Part shown: in pieces, positions 11,677-54,662 of the stretch | Numbering within the stretch: the stretch's first letter is position 1 | How the letters are laid out: each line of letters begins with the position of its first letter | Origin: a phage | Assembly (NCBI GenBank): GCA_008273105.1 | Contig: GCA_008273105.1_4080.1 | Reading direction: 5' to 3' (one strand) | DNA length: 64,000 nt | The notes under the pieces: generated by a model | Told to the model about the DNA's origin: nothing | Database searches by the model: none | Seen by the model: only the letters and a program-made list of their open reading frames with translations | Program-made: the position numbers and the translations under genes

Positions 11677-12483
11677 TTAGCCAATAATCATACCGAGTGG
11701 TTCAGCACCATCTTGATAACGTTTCAAACGCTCTTTAAGCTGTTCTTGAAGCTGTAAACCTTCATTGCGTAAGGTATCACCATCCATAGAAAACGTTCCC
11801 TGTGGTCCAGGAAGCGATGCGAATTTAGCACGGTTACGACCCAACATTATCATTGCTTCGGATAAAGCCCAATCACGCAACCAAGGATAACTTTGCTGCC
11901 TTTGGAACAACAATGGTTCAGGAATATTATGATACACGTGTAATAGTACTTCTTCAGTACCTCGAATATCACGATCTATAATTAATTTTTTGGTCATTGG
12001 GTTAAATTGAAATATAATATCACGACCAAACATACGACCTACCAGTTCTTGGAACTGAAAACTAAAATCATATGTAGTTAGATCATATCCACCAGCATTT
12101 CGTGCTGAAGTCAATAAGTAAGTGTTGGTGAATGCTAGAGAAAACGGGTCTACTGAGTTCCCACTACCAGAACTTAAGTAACCATTACCATAACGATAAA
12201 TCTTTTTAACAATTTCAACTTCAGTTGGTAGCATATATACAGATTGTGAATCATAAAATTTCATATTTAAAAATGCTTCTTCTTTAGAAGCAGAACTCCA
12301 CGCTCTGTAATTCGATACCGCATTATCAATTGCAATTTCTAATTGACCATCAGTAATTTCTACCTCAACGGCCCCAGCACCCAACATTTGAGTGATAACA
12401 TCTTTCAGTTTTTCACGATGGTCAAAGTTAGGAGCATCAGGGTTTCCACCCATATAATCGTAAGACATAAAAAAGCACCTCAT
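11677..12483 (-). CDS. putative virion structural protein
   Basis: 268-aa ORF; true start probably Met6 (MSYDYMGG, GAGGTG SD upstream). Confidence 0.5.
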   Translation of the reverse strand: MRCFFMSYDYMGGNPDAPNFDHREKLKDVITQMLGAGAVEVEITDGQLEIAIDNAVSNYRAWSSASKEEAFLNMKFYDSQSVYMLPTEVEIVKKIYRYGNGYLSSGSGNSVDPFSLAFTNTYLLTSARNAGGYDLTTYDFSFQFQELVGRMFGRDIIFQFNPMTKKLIIDRDIRGTEEVLLHVYHNIPEPLLFQRQQSYPWLRDWALSEAMIMLGRNRAKFASLPGPQGTFSMDGDTLRNEGLQLQEQLKERLKRYQDGAEPLGMIIG

Positions 12484-12518
12484 TAATGTTTATATACATT
12501 ATTTAGAGGTGCTAATAG

Positions 12519-12737
12519 TTATTTTGAATTATACAAGCAGTACAGGTATACCAATGGAGTAAAATGTTCGGAATCTATTATATATATTAACTGAGTAACA
12601 TATATTCCATATAGATCTCGTGATTTATCTCTGTACATTAACAATGATTTATTTAAGTAAGGATCAACCCAGTACTTAATATCATTGTACTTCAACGTGT
12701 TGTTACGGTAACCTGATAGTTTTGAATTTTTATTCAA
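12519..12737 (-). CDS. hypothetical protein
   Basis: 72-aa ORF filling an otherwise non-coding gap. Confidence 0.35.
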   Translation of the reverse strand: MNKNSKLSGYRNNTLKYNDIKYWVDPYLNKSLLMYRDKSRDLYGIYVTQLIYIIDSEHFTPLVYLYCLYNSK

Positions 12738-13107
12738 TTTTCTTACAATTACTCAGTAAGTGAATGATATCATCAGCAGTGAATGGTCCCAATACCAGAA
12801 CTTCTTCACCATTTCCGAAAATGCTCAATGGCACTGATTGTTGACCAGCTAGATATTCAATTTGTTCCAGTTCGAAAATGTCATCAGCAGCATATACTAC
12901 CTGCTCCATTTCATTATCTTTAATCCATGACTGCCAATGTTCTTTAAACTTCTTAGCTTCGTATTCTTGAACATAGTTAGGTGATTCAGGGTTGTATTGA
13001 TGTAACATAGTCATCCCAGCCATTACTAATTCTTTAGGGGATGGTGTAGAATCTTTCAGTACTACGATAGCTTGGATAGTTTTTACTTTAACGTCATTAG
13101 CAGCCAT
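12730..13107 (-). CDS. hypothetical protein
   Basis: 125-aa ORF. Confidence 0.5.
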   Translation of the reverse strand: MAANDVKVKTIQAIVVLKDSTPSPKELVMAGMTMLHQYNPESPNYVQEYEAKKFKEHWQSWIKDNEMEQVVYAADDIFELEQIEYLAGQQSVPLSIFGNGEEVLVLGPFTADDIIHLLSNCKKIE

Positions 13108-13119
13108 TATATACCTCTA

Positions 13120-13437
13120 TTATAGAATGATTTTATTCTCAGGAACGAAAACTTTTGGAGTGTTTTCGATTGCTTTAATAGCATCAACATAAGCATCAAC
13201 TAATGCAGGGTTTGCATCACTAACACTAATAATGTTGGATTTATAAAAAATAACATTTTTCTCCATACTAACAAACTCTAGATAATCACGAAGAATGATT
13301 TCACCATTTTCGTCAGTCCCTAGTTGTGCTGGGTAGTTAACTACAACAGCTTCAGCAGAATCGGTTTGAAGAACTGCTAGTACTGGGCCAATGTTATTGA
13401 TGTTTAGTAGTTTAACGGTCATAGTCATTTTTGTCAA
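13120..13437 (-). CDS. hypothetical protein
   Basis: 105-aa ORF. Confidence 0.5.
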   Translation of the reverse strand: MTKMTMTVKLLNINNIGPVLAVLQTDSAEAVVVNYPAQLGTDENGEIILRDYLEFVSMEKNVIFYKSNIISVSDANPALVDAYVDAIKAIENTPKVFVPENKIIL

Positions 13438-13447
13438 GTCCTTTTGT

Positions 13448-13924
13448 TTATTTTAGAATGTATAAGTGTTTTTCTGCATTGACCAGTCGGTGATCAATGA
13501 TTTCTTTGATAACGTTCCAGTTACCGCCGCCCAAATCGGCTCCAATTTTCGGGAAGTGTACATGAACATCTCGATCAACTTTACAAAAATAATTTAGATG
13601 TTTGAACACATCGTCGATTGCATCATAACTGACATATTTAGCACCGTCATTACCGTACATTTTTTGGGTAATACAGTTTGCAATAATCAAATTATCGTTA
13701 ATTGCTGAATATGCAATTTGTCCAATTCTAAGAAATCCCATTTCCTTTTCATATGCTTTATAATCATCATATGCCATTGGGTAACGATTTCTTAGCTCTT
13801 TTGCAAAACCTGAACCCATTTTACCCTGTGCGTTACAACCATGAGCAATTATATGTATTGCTGTTTTATCATCTGTTACAGTACTGAATAATTCAAACAG
13901 ATTACCTCGGTGTTCATGAATCAT
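13448..13924 (-). CDS. macrodomain protein, TARG1/OARD1-like (ADP-ribose processing)
   Basis: IIAHGCNAQGKMGSGFAKELRNRYP and FPKIGADLGGGNWNVI match recalled OARD1 blocks (ISHCISEDCRMGAGIA..., MPRIGCGLDRLQWENV). Confidence 0.65.
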   Translation of the reverse strand: MIHEHRGNLFELFSTVTDDKTAIHIIAHGCNAQGKMGSGFAKELRNRYPMAYDDYKAYEKEMGFLRIGQIAYSAINDNLIIANCITQKMYGNDGAKYVSYDAIDDVFKHLNYFCKVDRDVHVHFPKIGADLGGGNWNVIKEIIDHRLVNAEKHLYILK

Positions 13925-13934
13925 TATATTCTCC

Positions 13935-13966
13935 GAAAAGAAAGGACTCTGTGGTCAGAGTCCTTA
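13935..13966 (-). terminator. rho-independent terminator
   Basis: 9-bp stem AGGACTCTG/CAGAGTCCT, 4-nt loop, T-rich tail on minus strand. Confidence 0.6.
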
Positions 13967-13973
13967 TTTTAAA

Positions 13974-14231
13974 TTATTCTTCTTCACCGAAACGTATTTT
14001 CTTTAATTCTTTTCGATGCTTTCTAGCTATTGTACTTTTGTGAAGTCTATTACTGCGTTTTGTGTCTTTTGTAATGTACCATGAATCTTCTGGTGCATCA
14101 TAATCACAAAATCCATCTTCCGTAATTGTTCCTAAAAATGCAGATTTTTTAGGAATATTAGTTTGAGCTTTAGCCTGAAATTGACCTTTTGCTAATTGTT
14201 CACGAAAACTGAGCATAATAGTATCTCCCAA
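13974..14231 (-). CDS. hypothetical protein (basic C-terminus)
   Basis: 85-aa ORF. Confidence 0.45.
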   Translation of the reverse strand: MGDTIMLSFREQLAKGQFQAKAQTNIPKKSAFLGTITEDGFCDYDAPEDSWYITKDTKRSNRLHKSTIARKHRKELKKIRFGEEE

Positions 14232-14262
14232 ATTGTTAAGAAGAACTTTTTGTTCTTCACAT

Positions 14263-14514
14263 TTATTTAGGGTTGCCAGAAACCTTCACATGTTTGATAA
14301 ATGCCAAAATATCATCTTTACTAAAAGATTTTACAATAAATTCGACAGCGGAATCATACTGTTCTTGTTTAGATAGATATTCTTTCATCTTGTTAATTTT
14401 AATCTGGGCTTTTTCTTTAGCTATTGAAATATCAGGAATTTTGAACTCTACTCCCAACGTATCAGCTAGTTGTTTTGCACGAGATGATACTTTTTCAATA
14501 TCCATTAGTTCCAA
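14263..14514 (-). CDS. hypothetical protein
   Basis: 83-aa ORF. Confidence 0.45.
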   Translation of the reverse strand: MELMDIEKVSSRAKQLADTLGVEFKIPDISIAKEKAQIKINKMKEYLSKQEQYDSAVEFIVKSFSKDDILAFIKHVKVSGNPK

Positions 14515-14753
14515 CGACCTTCTTTAAGACCTTCAATAAACCCAGTACAACCACCTGGTACATAAATGTCATTTACGAAAATTTGAGGAACTTGACGAAC
14601 TGGTTCACCACAAATTTCAGACAGTTTTGAACCATCGATACCTTCAGCAACAATATCTACAAACTCCATTTCAAATTTATTTTGTTCACATACAGCTTTT
14701 GCAGTGTCGCAAAATTTACAACCAGTCTTGCGACCATAAATTTTAACTTTCAT
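14505..14753 (-). CDS. nrdC: glutaredoxin/thioredoxin (T4 NrdC-like)
   Basis: MKVKIYGRKTGCKFCDTAK: CxxC redox motif in NrdC-like context; ~82 aa. Confidence 0.75.
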   Translation of the reverse strand: MKVKIYGRKTGCKFCDTAKAVCEQNKFEMEFVDIVAEGIDGSKLSEICGEPVRQVPQIFVNDIYVPGGCTGFIEGLKEGRWN

Positions 14754-14754
14754 G

Positions 14755-15156
14755 TTATTTCCTTCTATTTCTTTGAAAAGCTTTAACAGCTTTAATAATA
14801 CTGTTACACATTCGTTCAGTCAAATACTTTTGACATTCTCGTACATCAATGTACATGAACTTATCCAATTCTGGATGACTCTTACCATATCTATTAGTGT
14901 AAGTACTTTTACAAACTAATTCATCTGGTATTGGTTTGTCTTTGGCAGTATAAAAGAAAAGTACTAACCTTTTTCCCTTTCTATAGGATACATCACCAAG
15001 AAACAGAAGATCATCTTCATCGATTTCGTATCCTGTCTCTTCGAAACATTCACGTACAGCAGCTTCTTTGAAAGTTTCATTACCCTCAGCTTTCCCTTTA
15101 GGTAAATCCCAATGATTCTGTCCGTGTTGTATGTCCGATAAGTATCTGACCATCAC
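14755..15156 (-). CDS. Nudix hydrolase
   Basis: Canonical Nudix box GKAEGNETFKEAAVRECFEETGY. Confidence 0.8.
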   Translation of the reverse strand: MMVRYLSDIQHGQNHWDLPKGKAEGNETFKEAAVRECFEETGYEIDEDDLLFLGDVSYRKGKRLVLFFYTAKDKPIPDELVCKSTYTNRYGKSHPELDKFMYIDVRECQKYLTERMCNSIIKAVKAFQRNRRK

Positions 15157-15264
15157 GATAAAATATTATACCACAACTATAACGCATATCTTATCTCTTT
15201 GTCATCAATCGATGTTCAGATACTAATAATTATATCAGTTATTGGTTTTTTGTCCCACTATTTT

Positions 15265-16377
15265 TTAGAACATTTGTTTGATTGCTTCATAACGAAGTTC
15301 ACAAACAAAATCACGAATTTCTGACGTTTCAAGTTCACCATCTTTGACCATTTGCTGAATATCAGGCAATTCAACATCAGTATAACGATCATAAACTTTA
15401 ATAATTAGATCTTCAAGTTCTAAATCAATTTCTTTTCGCAAAATGAAGTATTCCAAAACTTTATAAAGGAATTCTTCACCTCCGTTATTTTTAATATTCA
15501 TATCCAATAAAATATTACCCATTTCAATAGGGGTCTTTTTACGGAATGTTTTGATATCATCACGGAAACGTTTGATATAATTACTAAATTTAACATACTT
15601 AACTGGAACTTTAATAGCACCGTTAAGTACTGAATCATTATTTACTTCTTCATTTTCAAGAAGAATAGACCACAGAAAATATGGTTTATATACATCCGTA
15701 CAGTTCTCTGCAATATAATCAATAAGGTCTAAATTCTTTTTGGTCAAAGATGTATTAAACACCTTTTCGTAATAACCAAATTTACTTAGCGTCTTAAGGA
15801 ACTTTGCAGGCTTTTCTTCGGAAAATGCTTTTTCGAATTCCACAAAAACACGGTCAGGAACAAGATGATTTAGCTCACCACTATTGACCATTCCAATAGC
15901 TAGTTCCTCAGTGCTTTCATGGATAGTAAAGTCTGAATAACGAGTAGCAAATCGAGCAAGACGTAACACACGTAATGGATCTTCTTTAAAATGGTCAGAA
16001 ACATGACGTAGTACCTTGTTCTTGATATCAGCTTTACCACCGTATGGATCAATGTGAATTTGTAGTACTGGATCATACGAAATTGCATTTATTGTTAGGT
16101 CACGGCGATACAAATCTTGTTCGAGTGTTACGCCTTTTGTATCCACTTCAAAGCCACCATATCCAGTACCAGTTTTACGCTCAGTACGGGCTAATGCGTG
16201 TTCATTACCTTCTGGACTTAGATATACAGGGAAATCCTTACCTACTTGCTTATAGCCAATACTTTGCAAGTACTTAATATCAGATTCAGTTGCTCCGACA
16301 ATGACATAATCTTTGTCTTTTGCACGAAGACCCATTAAACGGTCACGGACGTAGCCACCAACCAAATACTTTTTCAT
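15265..16377 (-). CDS. cca: tRNA nucleotidyltransferase (CCA-adding enzyme), head/neck domain only
   Basis: MKKYLVGGYVRDRLMGL...DKDYVIVG...ALARTERK...RRDLTINA...EDPLRVLRLARF closely matches class II CCA enzymes; shorter than E. coli Cca. Confidence 0.85.
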   Translation of the reverse strand: MKKYLVGGYVRDRLMGLRAKDKDYVIVGATESDIKYLQSIGYKQVGKDFPVYLSPEGNEHALARTERKTGTGYGGFEVDTKGVTLEQDLYRRDLTINAISYDPVLQIHIDPYGGKADIKNKVLRHVSDHFKEDPLRVLRLARFATRYSDFTIHESTEELAIGMVNSGELNHLVPDRVFVEFEKAFSEEKPAKFLKTLSKFGYYEKVFNTSLTKKNLDLIDYIAENCTDVYKPYFLWSILLENEEVNNDSVLNGAIKVPVKYVKFSNYIKRFRDDIKTFRKKTPIEMGNILLDMNIKNNGGEEFLYKVLEYFILRKEIDLELEDLIIKVYDRYTDVELPDIQQMVKDGELETSEIRDFVCELRYEAIKQMF

Positions 16378-16512
16378 ATTATTCCCCCATCAACCAATCA
16401 CGCAAACGTTCCCATAAGCCTTTGGGCTTATATTCTGGGTATTCATATTCATCAGTGCCTTGCTCGGAAACACCCCAATCTTCTTCTAACATAGCAATCA
16501 TAATGCCTCCAA

Positions 16513-16935
16513 TTAAATTAATCTGTCACGTAGACGGTCGTAATATTTTTCGTGTATAGCTAGTATACACTGATATGCAGAATAGTCAATGCCAAATGTA
16601 TCATCAATGAACATGTACTGATCAAGTGCTTCTGGCCCATTATCATCAACTGGTAATGTCCCTTCTTTTTTTGATAGGGTGTGCCACATCAACTCACTTT
16701 CAATATGGTGAGTTGCGTATGTCAATTCAATCTTACTTTTTCTTAGTAAAATTAACAATTCATCATTGTCGTCGAGTGCATTACGAAATTTAATACGAAC
16801 AGTACCCTGAAAATTATTAGTGTACATAACACGATGTTGATTATATGTAACTAAACCACGTCTTTCAGTACTGATTTCGTGTTCAGCAAAGTACTTTAAC
16901 GTTTCATTAAATTTTGGAATTTTAGTAACGTCCAA
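16513..16935 (-). CDS. hypothetical protein (paralog pair A)
   Basis: 140 aa; shares (Q/Y)xFIDDTFGIDxxxYQ motif with 16922-17338. Confidence 0.5.
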   Translation of the reverse strand: MDVTKIPKFNETLKYFAEHEISTERRGLVTYNQHRVMYTNNFQGTVRIKFRNALDDNDELLILLRKSKIELTYATHHIESELMWHTLSKKEGTLPVDDNGPEALDQYMFIDDTFGIDYSAYQCILAIHEKYYDRLRDRLI

Positions 16936-17338
16936 TCACATAATCCTCATAAAGTTTGTATACCCTCATTATACTCTGATATGTATCAAAGTCAATGCCA
17001 AAGGTATCATCAATGAACTGATATTGCAAAAACTCTTCCTCTGTAGCAGCAATAGGAAGAGTCCCGTTTCGTTGTTCTGTTGATTGAACATCCTCAATAT
17101 ACATCAACACTATACTTTCATCCAGATTTATATCTATCATAAAAACATCTTCACTATAAAATATGTTATATGTACGGATGAAGAGATTTCCTGTTCTATC
17201 ATAACTTGACACGTGTGTTTCATAATACATTTTATCTAAACTAAAGAACAAACCTGTACTATCTGGCTTTTTAGTATTTTTTAATTTAATTTCGATAGCA
17301 TCAATCATAGGTTTAATATCAAACTTTTTCATAGACAA
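16922..17338 (-). CDS. hypothetical protein (paralog pair B)
   Basis: 138 aa; paralog of 16513-16935. Confidence 0.5.
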   Translation of the reverse strand: MSMKKFDIKPMIDAIEIKLKNTKKPDSTGLFFSLDKMYYETHVSSYDRTGNLFIRTYNIFYSEDVFMIDINLDESIVLMYIEDVQSTEQRNGTLPIAATEEEFLQYQFIDDTFGIDFDTYQSIMRVYKLYEDYVIGRY

Positions 17339-51226: not shown

Positions 51227-52666
51227 TTACATATTTTCTTCAGCAAATTCTGCAAGTGGTGAACGAACAACACCTTCTAGTTCGATGACACGACAACCTG
51301 CCCAATCTTTAAACTTCTCAGTTACATATGTCAAACCACTGTTAACAGGACTAATAAACTTACTGTCAATCTGACTCAAGTTACCCATAATTACTACTTT
51401 ACAGTTTAATCCTGCTCGTGTCAAGATTGTTTTAGCTTGTGCAGGTGTAATGTTTTGGAATTCATCAACTACTAGAATAGTGTTGGTGAATGAACGTCCA
51501 CGTACAAAGTTTAGTGCTTTAAATTGAATAACATTACGTTTCATAATCTCTTCAATACTACCTTGAGGGTTAGCATCATCTTTATGAAGAAACTCTAACG
51601 CGTCAATTGCGGCTCCACAGAATGGAATCACTTTTTCTGCTTCTGAACCTGGCAAGAAACCAATATCTTCAAACTGTGAGTCTTGAGTTTTAGAGAAGAT
51701 GATTCGGTCGTATTTACGTTTTTCCAGTACTAATTCTAATGCAGTAGCAATCGTAATTAGTGTTTTACCAGTACCAGCAGAACCTAGCAGTACTGTTAGA
51801 TGTACATCAGGATCGAGAATACTGTTGATGGCGAGTGCTTGTTGGATATTCTTTGCTTTAATATCCCATACTTTAGCACGTAAAGCTACTGATTGTCCAA
51901 TATCTTGGAATACCAAAATATCTTCTGGTGTTAGTGTTCCATCATCTTCCTCAATTGCTGATTGACCTTCGTACACAAATAATACGTCTGCATCATCATA
52001 TAGATAATCACCGATGCATAGATTTTGTGGAAGCAAATGTTCAATCAAGCTTTTAGAAATGTAATGATACAAACGACGACCAACTTGTTCGGATTGAATA
52101 TTAGTATTGGTTAAGTTGCTATATACTTCCCAAAAATTAATTTCCAAATGGTGTTGACCAATGTGAATCAAATCACTATCACCAATAACAATATCATGGC
52201 GATAATCTTGTACCTCGACACCATAACTTAGTGCTTTGATACGCATGTTGATATCACGAGTTACCAGTACTGATTCTGTTGCTAAAGCTACCAGAATGAT
52301 TTTATCATCAGGTACTGTGCTTTTGAGAAGGGTTTGAACTTTCTCTTCTGAACCTTTAGTACGAATTAGTGCTTCAGCTTCTTCGTTTGTAATAACAAAC
52401 AATTTGCTATCAGGATTCATATTGGTATGAACATCAGCAATATTAACACCAGTACTACTAATCTCATCATGTGATGCATCTGCAATAATTGCTTCAATGT
52501 TACGAATAGCAACACGAGCATCGCGTGAAACATCTACATTACGACTCTTAATTGAATCCAATTCTTCCAGTACTGTAAATGGTAGAATGATTGCAGCACC
52601 ATCAAAAGCAATAGATGCATTAGGGTCAGATAGTAGTACGTTTGTGTCAATTGTATATTTTTTCAT
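51227..52666 (-). CDS. phoH: PhoH-like ATPase with N-terminal PIN domain (YlaK-type)
   Basis: Walker A LLGSAGTGKT in PhoH-like C-terminal half; N-terminal PIN-like acidic residues. Confidence 0.8.
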   Translation of the reverse strand: MKKYTIDTNVLLSDPNASIAFDGAAIILPFTVLEELDSIKSRNVDVSRDARVAIRNIEAIIADASHDEISSTGVNIADVHTNMNPDSKLFVITNEEAEALIRTKGSEEKVQTLLKSTVPDDKIILVALATESVLVTRDINMRIKALSYGVEVQDYRHDIVIGDSDLIHIGQHHLEINFWEVYSNLTNTNIQSEQVGRRLYHYISKSLIEHLLPQNLCIGDYLYDDADVLFVYEGQSAIEEDDGTLTPEDILVFQDIGQSVALRAKVWDIKAKNIQQALAINSILDPDVHLTVLLGSAGTGKTLITIATALELVLEKRKYDRIIFSKTQDSQFEDIGFLPGSEAEKVIPFCGAAIDALEFLHKDDANPQGSIEEIMKRNVIQFKALNFVRGRSFTNTILVVDEFQNITPAQAKTILTRAGLNCKVVIMGNLSQIDSKFISPVNSGLTYVTEKFKDWAGCRVIELEGVVRSPLAEFAEENM

Positions 52667-52726
52667 AAAACATCCTTGAGTTATGAGTACATCCTTGTAC
52701 TCGACTAATGTTATTGACTCGGATTA

Positions 52727-53029
52727 TTACATATTTGGTTCGTATTCAACATAGCAACGTGAACCTCGAACCTTTTCTTCCCAGCACTCCTGGTAAACAA
52801 GTTGACCAATTGAAACTGGTTCTCTTGATAGTCCATTACGTACTTCACCACTTTGGGTTTTATACATAAATGAACATTTGGACTCGCTACATTGTCCTAA
52901 ACTAACAACTTCTGCGGTATTGTAGTGAATGTTGGTACGCTTAGTGTTCTCGTGATACTGTCCGAACCAAAGAACTCCTGCACCTAACAGAACAGTACAA
53001 ATAAGACTTTTGATGTGTGTTTGAATCAT
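52727..53029 (-). CDS. small secreted/membrane Cys-containing protein
   Basis: 100 aa, N-terminal hydrophobic signal-like segment. Confidence 0.5.
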   Translation of the reverse strand: MIQTHIKSLICTVLLGAGVLWFGQYHENTKRTNIHYNTAEVVSLGQCSESKCSFMYKTQSGEVRNGLSREPVSIGQLVYQECWEEKVRGSRCYVEYEPNM

Positions 53030-53346
53030 AATGAGTTAAATCCATTGTTTAAGTATGTTTCAATATTAATTTTACCAACAGGATTACTACTGTGAACAAA
53101 GTACTCAAACGGTTCTTTAATATTATTATCAAACATATAATCAATAAGAAACTTAGCAAAAGAATATCCAGTCTTTTCGTCTTCGCTCACATCACCCAAG
53201 TCATGGTCGAATGATACAAATGCTGGAATTCCATTTTCAATAACATATTCACATGCACTTTTAAAGTCACGACATACCACCATATCTTGGTTTGGATAAT
53301 ATAGATTTGCATCACGAATATCATCCAAAAACATTGAGTAAGACAT
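53026..53346 (-). CDS. hypothetical protein
   Basis: 106-aa ORF. Confidence 0.5.
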   Translation of the reverse strand: MSYSMFLDDIRDANLYYPNQDMVVCRDFKSACEYVIENGIPAFVSFDHDLGDVSEDEKTGYSFAKFLIDYMFDNNIKEPFEYFVHSSNPVGKINIETYLNNGFNSL

Positions 53347-53355
53347 GTTAAACTC

Positions 53356-53907
53356 CTATAGATAACTAATTAGTAAGTTTTCTTTTTGAACCAGATACTC
53401 CAATTCTTGTTTTGCTGTACCGATGAAGTTCTGTGTCATAAGATTATTATATCCCGCTTCTCGATTTTGTCCCTTAGAATAACGCGAAATATGACATAAA
53501 TTTACACCAGCAACTTCTGCACTTGCATGTTTAGCATTAGTGTATCCATCTCTAATGTGTTTCAACTCGTCATAGGTTACTTCATAGCTAAAACTGTGAC
53601 TGTTTGCACCTGGGTAAATTTCAAAAGTTTTGAGTGGTCGAAGATGGGAAACAAAAATATTGTAATCCATTTCTTCTTGAACTTCACGACGCAACGCATC
53701 TTCTAGTGAGATATCAGTACTTTCTACGGTTCCACCACATCCACCAAGAAGACCATCCCATCGTAATTGCAGTAATACTAAATTTACTTCTGGTATATCA
53801 TTCAACTCATAGTTTTTGTAAGGGTTGCATTTTCTTGCAAAGAAATAACAAAATACAAAATTTGCACGTGTGCCATATTCACCAAAGGGAACTTCTTTAA
53901 CACTCAT
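53356..53907 (-). CDS. Nudix-like hydrolase (non-canonical spacing)
   Basis: GGCGGTVE...DALRREVQEE: REVxEE core present but the following Gly is absent and spacing is longer. Confidence 0.45.
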   Translation of the reverse strand: MSVKEVPFGEYGTRANFVFCYFFARKCNPYKNYELNDIPEVNLVLLQLRWDGLLGGCGGTVESTDISLEDALRREVQEEMDYNIFVSHLRPLKTFEIYPGANSHSFSYEVTYDELKHIRDGYTNAKHASAEVAGVNLCHISRYSKGQNREAGYNNLMTQNFIGTAKQELEYLVQKENLLISYL

Positions 53908-54662
53908 TTCATACGTTCCTTAATTATAGTCTCTAGATGCGGTATTGCTTTGGTTGCTGGCTTGATAACTTTTTCATTAAACAAAAAATCATTATCATTT
54001 TTACGAATGTTAACATTAACACTATAACATGGTAATGCTGCTGCTAATCTCGACCATACCAGTACTGTATCGCTACTACCAATTACAATAACTGTATCAT
54101 TTTCATTAAGAGATTTCAACACATTATTTCGTTCTTCGTAAATTGGTAAGCGAATACCATCAACATAACGATGATATTCTCCAATCATTACTACATTTGG
54201 TTTGGCAAAAACATCATGTTTTGGTATGTATGGTTCGTATCCGCAGTTAATAACATTATAATCATCAGAATTGATACTATAATTTTCAATAACTTCACAC
54301 AAGTTTCCATGAAGTTTAAGCTCATGACCACCAATACGAGTATAAAGATCGTCCATGTTAGAAGTCATATGAAGGAAGCAATCACCATATTGATCTTCTA
54401 ACGATTTTATAAAATAATGCATTGCATTTGGTTCGCATTGTCCCAATTTTACACGTAATGTATTATAGAAAGAATGAACAACATGATATTTTGTAGTTAA
54501 ACTAGCAATGTTACATACATCATTAATTTTAAATGTATCCCACAAACCATCATCAAATCGAAAAGGTTCCATACCACTTTCAACAGAAAGTCCTGCACCT
54601 GATATAATCAGTAATCGCTTTTTACCTTCATTGCTTATAAATTTTTCTGATATCATATTCAA
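53904..54662 (-). CDS. SIR2-family (sirtuin-like) NAD-dependent protein
   Basis: ISGAGLSVESGMEPFR, TSNMDDLY...LHG (catalytic His), KPNVVMIGE, VIGSSDTV match recalled CobB/Sir2 blocks. Confidence 0.75.
   Translation of the reverse strand: MNMISEKFISNEGKKRLLIISGAGLSVESGMEPFRFDDGLWDTFKINDVCNIASLTTKYHVVHSFYNTLRVKLGQCEPNAMHYFIKSLEDQYGDCFLHMTSNMDDLYTRIGGHELKLHGNLCEVIENYSINSDDYNVINCGYEPYIPKHDVFAKPNVVMIGEYHRYVDGIRLPIYEERNNVLKSLNENDTVIVIGSSDTVLVWSRLAAALPCYSVNVNIRKNDNDFLFNEKVIKPATKAIPHLETIIKERMK

Follow-up and report, generated by a model that had tools for sequence, protein, structure and literature searches.

Macro domains are the most widespread ADP-ribose (ADPr)-processing domains in phages, with 56% of jumbo phages having one; according to the argument of a large survey, their main targets are small ADPr-derived molecules (PMC9503650). 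Two phage macrodomain proteins have been connected to DarTG2. In T4, tk.4 was the sole significant hit in a transposon screen on darTG2-expressing E. coli, and a clean tk.4 knockout sensitised T4 to DarTG2; this evidence is purely genetic, and the gene was named adfM (bioRxiv 10.1101/2025.11.20.689424, preprint). For the chimallivirus protein PhiKZ gp104, which is also named AdfM, genetics and biochemistry showed that it clears DNA of the ADP-ribose added by DarT2 and thereby shields PhiKZ (2026 Cell Reports, PMC13309987).

One characterised relative is SCO6735, which strips ADP-ribose from thymidine in ssDNA with a higher efficiency than DarG or TARG1, rescues E. coli from DarT, and serves as a DarT antitoxin in Streptomyces (PMC9411070). 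This protein does not have the catalytic residues of TARG1 and DarG. On ADPr-dT DNA, its Q85A variant is inactive and its N27S variant nearly so, and in the proposed mechanism N27 holds Q85, which places the distal ribose, while a backbone-held water starts the thymine-ribose cleavage (PMC9411070). A Val or Ile at position 25 has been described as specific to SCO6735. Both SCO6735 and TARG1 also remove Glu-linked ADPr from proteins (PMC9411070), and SCO6735 hydrolyses uracil-ADPr on ssRNA. No activity was reported for it on 2'-OH RNA ADPr (PMC11833690). Where the ADPr is 5'-phosphate-linked, the published account contradicts itself, as the results give SCO6735 as inactive and the discussion describes it as acting on the phosphate ends of RNA (PMC11833690).

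In this work, we analysed a window of 64,000 nucleotides of phage DNA (GCA_008273105.1_4080.1) that contains a macrodomain gene equivalent to gp544 of phage 121Q (Table 1). The window is AT-rich (~34% GC), and its minus strand carries nearly all genes. A 2.5-kb stretch around the macrodomain ORF matches Escherichia phage vB_EcoM_E9.1 at 100% identity and further jumbo phages of the genus Asteriusvirus (~350 kb), among them PBECO4, 121Q, SP27, and Sharanji, at 99%; the source is an E. coli jumbo phage of the 121Q/PBECO4 group. The gene is real, and its identity at the domain level is already in the databases, where Asteriusvirus records label it as "macro domain-containing protein", "Appr-1-p processing domain protein", or "phosphatase". 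It is mentioned nowhere in the Sharanji genome paper and is not discussed in the NAD-jumbo-phage paper. The 49-nt gap directly upstream of the start codon contains a palindromic hairpin, which may be a transcript boundary, an attenuator, or a bidirectional terminator. A promoter/terminator scan of positions 12400-16600 found no enrichment over shuffled sequences (promoters: 18 vs 18.2; terminators: 3 vs 1.8).

Table 1. Coordinates of the macrodomain gene, its predicted functional elements, and other genes discussed in the text. Positions refer to the window unless another locus is named.
Feature	Position	Strand	Remarks
Macrodomain gene, equivalent to 121Q gp544 (YP_009102131)	13448..13924	-	ATG start; 158 aa; ORF fills the interval exactly
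Codons of H28-G29-C30-N31 and start of phosphate-binding loop 1 (QGKMGSG)	13822..13843	-	From alignment
Codons of T86-Q87	13664..13669	-	Q87 at the TARG1 K84 / DarG K80 / SCO6735 Q85 position
Codons of loop 2 (diphosphate-binding), P125-K-I-G128-A-D130-L-G132-G-G-N-W136	13514..13552	-	From alignment
Shine-Dalgarno GGAG	13931..13934	-	6 nt upstream of the macrodomain ATG; read from sequence
Perfect 10-bp palindromic hairpin	13942..13965	.	GC-containing; T-rich tails on both strands; consensus match only
tRNA/translation block (HPF, CCA-adding tRNA nucleotidyltransferase, Nudix, glutaredoxin, Macro, PTH2; YqeY in some phages)	~12730-16377	-	From synteny
Nudix gene	14755..15156	-	GTG start; 830 bp from the macrodomain gene
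PIN-PhoH ATPase	51227-52666	-	Sir2 cluster
Probable membrane ORF, 100 aa	52727-53029	-	Sir2 cluster
cREC cyclic-phosphate-processing domain protein	53026-53346	-	PF20274, 1.5e-22
Nudt16-like Nudix	53356..53907	-	PF22327, 8e-19; NUDT16 structures, 3e-12
SIR2-family gene	53904..54662	-	Sir2 cluster
T4 tk.4	544-1011 of the T4 locus examined		155 aa; sequence from T4 itself
PhiKZ gp104	12518-13006 of the PhiKZ locus examined		N23/K78, Lys-type

The first-pass annotation had described this ORF as a macrodomain of the TARG1/OARD1 subfamily, with the DarG macrodomain in the same grouping. The Pfam Macro model scored the window protein at 16.4 bits, which is under its gathering threshold of 22. Because Pfam alone gave no confirmation, sequence and structure searches against the PDB were needed. 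Among solved structures, the sequence search returned BT1257 (2FG1/2AFC; E 8e-16) and SCO6735 (5E3B; 8e-12), followed by Poa1p and DarG. A profile built from 64 homologues (lowest identity 38%) gave E-values of 1e-26 for BT1257, 8e-21 for SCO6735, 3e-16 for Poa1p, 3e-14 for DarG, and 6e-12 for TARG1/OARD1, while viral and MacroD-type domains were at 3.5e-3 or worse. In bits, BT1257 (95) was followed by T4 Tk.4 as the second-best scorer (88.5), and then by SCO6735 (76), Poa1p (59), DarG (55/51), TARG1 (49), and PhiKZ gp104 (48); TARG1 had the lowest score among the references of the ALC1-like class. The AlphaFold2 model from the alignment of these 64 homologues (mean pLDDT 95.8, pTM 0.91) has the three-layer alpha/beta/alpha macro fold, and a Foldseek search with this model found 2FG1 first (TM 0.83), then Poa1p, SCO6735, DarG, and TARG1. 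The closest relatives by both sequence and structure belong to the ALC1/TARG1-like class, not to the MacroD, PARG, or viral types. Based on the PDB and profile rankings and the AlphaFold2/Foldseek result, the window protein is a macrodomain of this class. The description as a macrodomain was borne out, with the fold appearing in the predicted structure and supported by the PDB and 64-homologue profile matches, even though the Pfam model fell short. The grouping with DarG also held, as DarG was among the nearest relatives in both the profile and Foldseek rankings.

Among specific family models, only those of DarG were matched (PADLOC, 1.4e-10; NCBIfam, 3.9e-8). Membership in the DarG family by the NCBIfam DarG equivalog was rejected, with 32.9 bits against a cut-off of 250. 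PHROG 335 ("phosphatase") pools the Gln-type proteins (the window protein and T4 Tk.4) with PhiKZ gp104, which is Lys-type. This group cannot tell the subtypes apart, and its label is uninformative.

For the active site, we built an alignment of the window protein, T4 Tk.4, PhiKZ gp104, BT1257, SCO6735, Poa1p, two DarGs, and TARG1, with the reference segments taken from HMMER alignments. The TARG1 entry is what we take to be the sequence of that protein; its numbering gives K84/D125, and its score agrees with that of the PDB match. The strand-1 motif and the residue at the catalytic position are H28-G29-C30-N31 and Q87 in the window protein, H-G-C-N and Q in T4 Tk.4, H-I-C-N and Q in BT1257, H24-V25-C26-N27 and Q85 in SCO6735, H-S-C-N and S in Poa1p, N-T-V-N and K80 in DarG, I-T-V-N and K78 in PhiKZ gp104, and H32-C-I-S35 and K84 in TARG1. 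N31 is aligned with SCO6735 N27, DarG N22, and PhiKZ AdfM N23, and G132 is at the position of TARG1 D125 (family column: G55/A9). Nine residues are invariant in the 64-sequence alignment (H28, G29, N31, G39, Q87, G91, Y100, P125, and G128), with Q87 and N31 each kept in 64/64 homologues, and the motif [TGS]Qxx[YFW]G was found in 116 of the 120 homologues listed. The loops G34-K-M-G-S-G39 and P125-K-I-G128-A-D-L-G-G-G134 align with those of TARG1, DarG, and SCO6735 and are predicted to bind ADP-ribose.

Because K84/D125 are replaced by Q87/G132, the window protein is not a TARG1 orthologue. Together with the residue data for SCO6735 (PMC9411070), the alignment of Q87 and N31 makes it a Gln-type protein of the SCO6735/BT1257/Tk.4 kind, and it is not a DarG either. 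Thus, the TARG1/OARD1 assignment was right at the level of the class and wrong at the level of orthology, and mapping of the catalytic residues recovered both ADP-ribose loops and the N31/Q87 pair but not the TARG1 dyad. The typing of the predicted active site as Gln rather than Lys is new here; it sets the window protein apart from TARG1, DarG, and the AdfM of chimalliviruses and groups it with SCO6735 and Tk.4.

One further feature of loop 2 is D130 (codon 13535-13537), which stands where the GxG motif has its second Gly. The family varies at this column (G31/D20/V7/A4), and a sizeable subclade has an acidic residue beside the diphosphate-binding loop. Given this variability, D130 was ruled out as a stand-in for TARG1 D125.

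The macro family is among the commonest phage gene families. A tblastn search (E <= 1e-3) found it in 2,125 of 50,697 phage records, including Felixounaviruses, rV5, phi92, RB43, KVP40-like vibriophages, and T4 (tk.4), and a rerun at E <= 10 gained nothing further. Tk.4 and the window protein share 30% identity over 123 aa (BLASTP, E 3e-12). For PhiKZ gp104, comparison with the M. tuberculosis DarG gave E-values of 2e-30 (pairwise BLASTP) and 9e-25 (phmmer).

As an alternative role for this gene, the first-pass annotation had named the reversal of host DarT-like ADP-ribosylation. This is the function best supported by the characterised homologues, based on the N31/Q87 match to SCO6735, which cleaves thymidine-ADPr, and to Tk.4, which has the DarTG2 phenotype. 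With moderate confidence, we consider that the gene most likely erases DarT2-type thymidine ADP-ribosylation from phage DNA, acting as an orphan ADP-ribosyl glycohydrolase. When host DarTG2 releases DarT2, thymidines in ssDNA would become ADP-ribosylated; the phage enzyme would strip the ADP-ribose off replicating phage DNA, such that replication and packaging could continue. The protein would then be a phage-borne functional analogue of the DarG macrodomain, and its residues are consistent with a stand-alone, catalytically competent Gln-type enzyme. By analogy to SCO6735, loops 1 and 2 would bind the ADP-ribose, Gln87 held by Asn31 would position the distal ribose, and a water would cleave the N-glycosidic bond to thymine; the covalent Lys intermediate of the TARG1 type would not be formed. 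The phage host, E. coli, is the species in which the DarTG2 system of the T4 work was assayed.

The present analysis establishes the fold, the class, the identities of the active-site residues, their invariance across the family, and the homology to Tk.4. We infer the substrate (T-ADPr on ssDNA) and the role from homologues at 29-30% identity, for one of which the data come from a preprint, and several points weigh against them. The Tk.4 support is genetic and comes from a protein with 30% identity. SCO6735-type enzymes are promiscuous, acting on DNA, protein Glu-ADPr, and uracil-ADPr RNA, so the substrate used in the cell cannot be read off from homology. Moreover, SCO6735 V25 and the DNA-contacting K34 correspond to G29 and S38, and the small ADPr-derived molecules favoured by the phage survey (PMC9503650) are different targets. 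If DarT2 marks are indeed what this enzyme removes, then 121Q/PBECO4-type jumbo phages carry a ready counter to DarTG2. This would bear on their host range in DarTG2-carrying strains, because these phages are therapy candidates against E. coli O157 and Salmonella.

The gene is located within a conserved tRNA/translation block and not beside replication genes, which also counts against a DNA-directed role; this placement is reported here for the first time. The gene order is lysozyme, HPF, CCA-adding enzyme, Nudix, glutaredoxin, (YqeY), two small ORFs, Macro, a small ORF, PTH2, neck gp13, dNMP kinase, and tail sheath, with small ORFs, glutaredoxin, Nudix, and the PTH2-like gene as the immediate neighbours of the macrodomain gene. 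The block recurs in Rak2-like phages of Klebsiella, in metagenomic jumbo-phage contigs, and as far away as Xanthomonas phage XaC1, with macrodomain identities of 43-63%. The ORF at 12730-13107 is syntenic with PTH2; the Pfam PTH2 model matched it only at E 0.18, whereas a relative scored 1.2e-8. The Nudix gene of this block encodes 133 aa, ~10 aa shorter than the 143-144 aa in related phages, and its best solved relatives are of generic MutT/Ap4A-hydrolase types. Nearby, two adjacent and slightly overlapping minus-strand ORFs (16513-16935, 140 aa; 16922-17338, 138 aa) look like tandem paralogues, both having the C-terminal motif ...GTLP...QY.FIDDTFGID...YQ.I....

This neighbourhood, the similarity to Poa1p, and the action of SCO6735 on U-ADPr keep an RNA-directed role in contention as the more serious rival. 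The protein might maintain tRNA and translation by removing ADPr that host toxins set on RNA bases (e.g., uracil-ADPr), or might, like Poa1p, clear ADP-ribose-1''-phosphate and other by-products of NAD-dependent RNA repair downstream of Sir2/cREC/Nudix. We consider this doubtful. The shared gene order is seen within a single phage lineage and could simply have been inherited vertically, the Sir2 cluster is distant, the window protein has K35 and G132 where Poa1p has S30 and F152, and SCO6735 was reported as inactive on 2'-OH RNA ADPr, with an inconsistent record for the 5'-phosphate-linked case (PMC11833690). Furthermore, the sole in vivo phenotype of a Gln-type phage homologue is DarTG2 sensitivity. 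An extended form of this idea, in which the macrodomain is part of a jumbo-phage tRNA/translation rescue module (HPF, CCA-adding enzyme, Nudix, glutaredoxin, YqeY, Macro, and PTH2) and acts on ADPr of tRNA or mRNA, or on the ADPr-phosphate by-products of Sir2/cREC/Nudix RNA repair, seems unlikely to us; if true, it would make this protein the first phage RNA de-ADP-ribosylase. The SIR2-like gene and the two Nudix genes pointed out by the first-pass annotation are present (Table 1), and with them it had proposed that the macrodomain is an O-acyl-ADP-ribose deacylase in a full salvage route from OAADPr to ADPr to AMP. The window does encode each of the three enzyme types, the same-class TARG1 is named O-acetyl-ADP-ribose deacetylase 1 in the PDB, and some databases label homologues as "O-acetyl-ADP-ribose deacetylase". 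However, the K84/D125 dyad of TARG1 is missing, and the Sir2 of this phage has no known acetylated substrate or function as a deacetylase. The Sir2/Nudix/cREC/PIN-PhoH cluster (51227-54662) is 40 kb from the macrodomain gene and, in its predicted gene content, agrees with configuration (1) among the predicted, sirtuin-centred neighbourhoods for NAD-dependent RNA repair, which were explicitly noted as not coupled to Macro (Iyer et al., 2022). The Sir2 family was found in 987 phage records, rich in T5-like phages, versus 2125 for the macro family, with different host and phage distributions; Tequatrovirus was absent from the 30 Sir2 matches listed, and T4 does carry the macrodomain. The distance, the RNA-repair match, and the differing distribution thus indicate a coincidence of the parts list, and the proposed route is very unlikely.

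Two other explanations are less likely. As a protein de-mono-ADP-ribosylase, the enzyme could erase the marks of host ART-type defences or toxins, or tune the modifications made by phage ARTs. Such a function is compatible with the removal of Glu-linked ADPr by SCO6735 and TARG1 and with the prevalence of Macro domains in phages, particularly jumbo phages (PMC9503650). We found no ART gene beside the macrodomain gene, DarG-type enzymes are DNA-specific, and no phenotype or biochemistry among the phage homologues supports this activity, which makes it quite improbable. The protein could also be a non-catalytic binder or sponge for ADPr-derived immune signals, as hinted by the missing canonical Lys, by the annotation of the homologue in Xanthomonas phage XaC1 as "ADP-ribose binding protein", and by the survey's preference for small ADPr derivatives (PMC9503650). 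This is the least credible of the explanations, because the Gln at the catalytic position is essential for catalysis in SCO6735 and invariant in the family, which gives no sign of inactivation; the invariance of N31, Q87, and H28 points to an enzyme.

Compared with the described systems, the window protein shares with SCO6735 (5E3B) the Asn/Gln pair (N27/Q85 = N31/Q87). The differences between the two are that SCO6735 V25, which is proposed to place the catalytic water through its backbone, corresponds to an invariant Gly (G29), that the DNA-contacting K34 is replaced by S38, and that the loop after the Gln is two residues shorter in the window protein. For the DNA-contacting K89, the window protein has K88 directly after Q87, in a variable column (E28/K7/Q7 ...). 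SCO6735 and BT1257 are cellular rather than phage proteins, and BT1257 has no known function. TARG1/OARD1 (4J5R) differs by its catalytic K84 and D125. The DarGs of T. aquaticus (5M31/5M3E) and M. tuberculosis (5M3I) have K80 in place of Q87, and DarG also carries a DarT-binding domain at its C-terminus, with darT as a neighbouring gene, neither of which accompanies this single-domain protein of 158 aa. Poa1p (6LFQ) has a Ser at the Gln87 position and a long insertion before the last strand-loop that has no counterpart in the window protein; among its probed residues, H23 is kept (H28), whereas S30 and F152 are not according to the sequence alignment, and a phosphatase activity is possible on this evidence.

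Tk.4 is the closest characterised phage parallel. Both are stand-alone coliphage macrodomains of ~155 aa, with the motifs HGCN...TQ...PRIGAGIGKGNW and the loop-2 motif P-[KR]-I-G-A-x-[LI]-G-x-G-N-W in common. Tk.4 is from the Straboviridae and is encoded in the tk/vs/regB early region, whereas the window gene is from an Asteriusvirus jumbo phage and is in the CCA-enzyme/Nudix/PTH2 block beside neck and sheath genes; within this pair, the anti-DarTG2 phenotype belongs to Tk.4 only. PhiKZ gp104 is further away, with K78 in place of Q87 and BLASTP similarity to the window protein confined to loop 1. No new category of system is opened here, as a T4 homologue of the same subtype was already assigned an anti-DarTG2 function. 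The comparison offers a testable biological role for the unusual water-mediated Gln/Asn chemistry proposed for SCO6735. As judged by their active-site residues, the two AdfMs that were independently named in 2025-26 represent different catalytic subtypes, with gp104 being Lys-type (DarG-like) and Tk.4 being Gln-type (SCO6735-like), the subtype that is spread through thousands of myovirus genomes.
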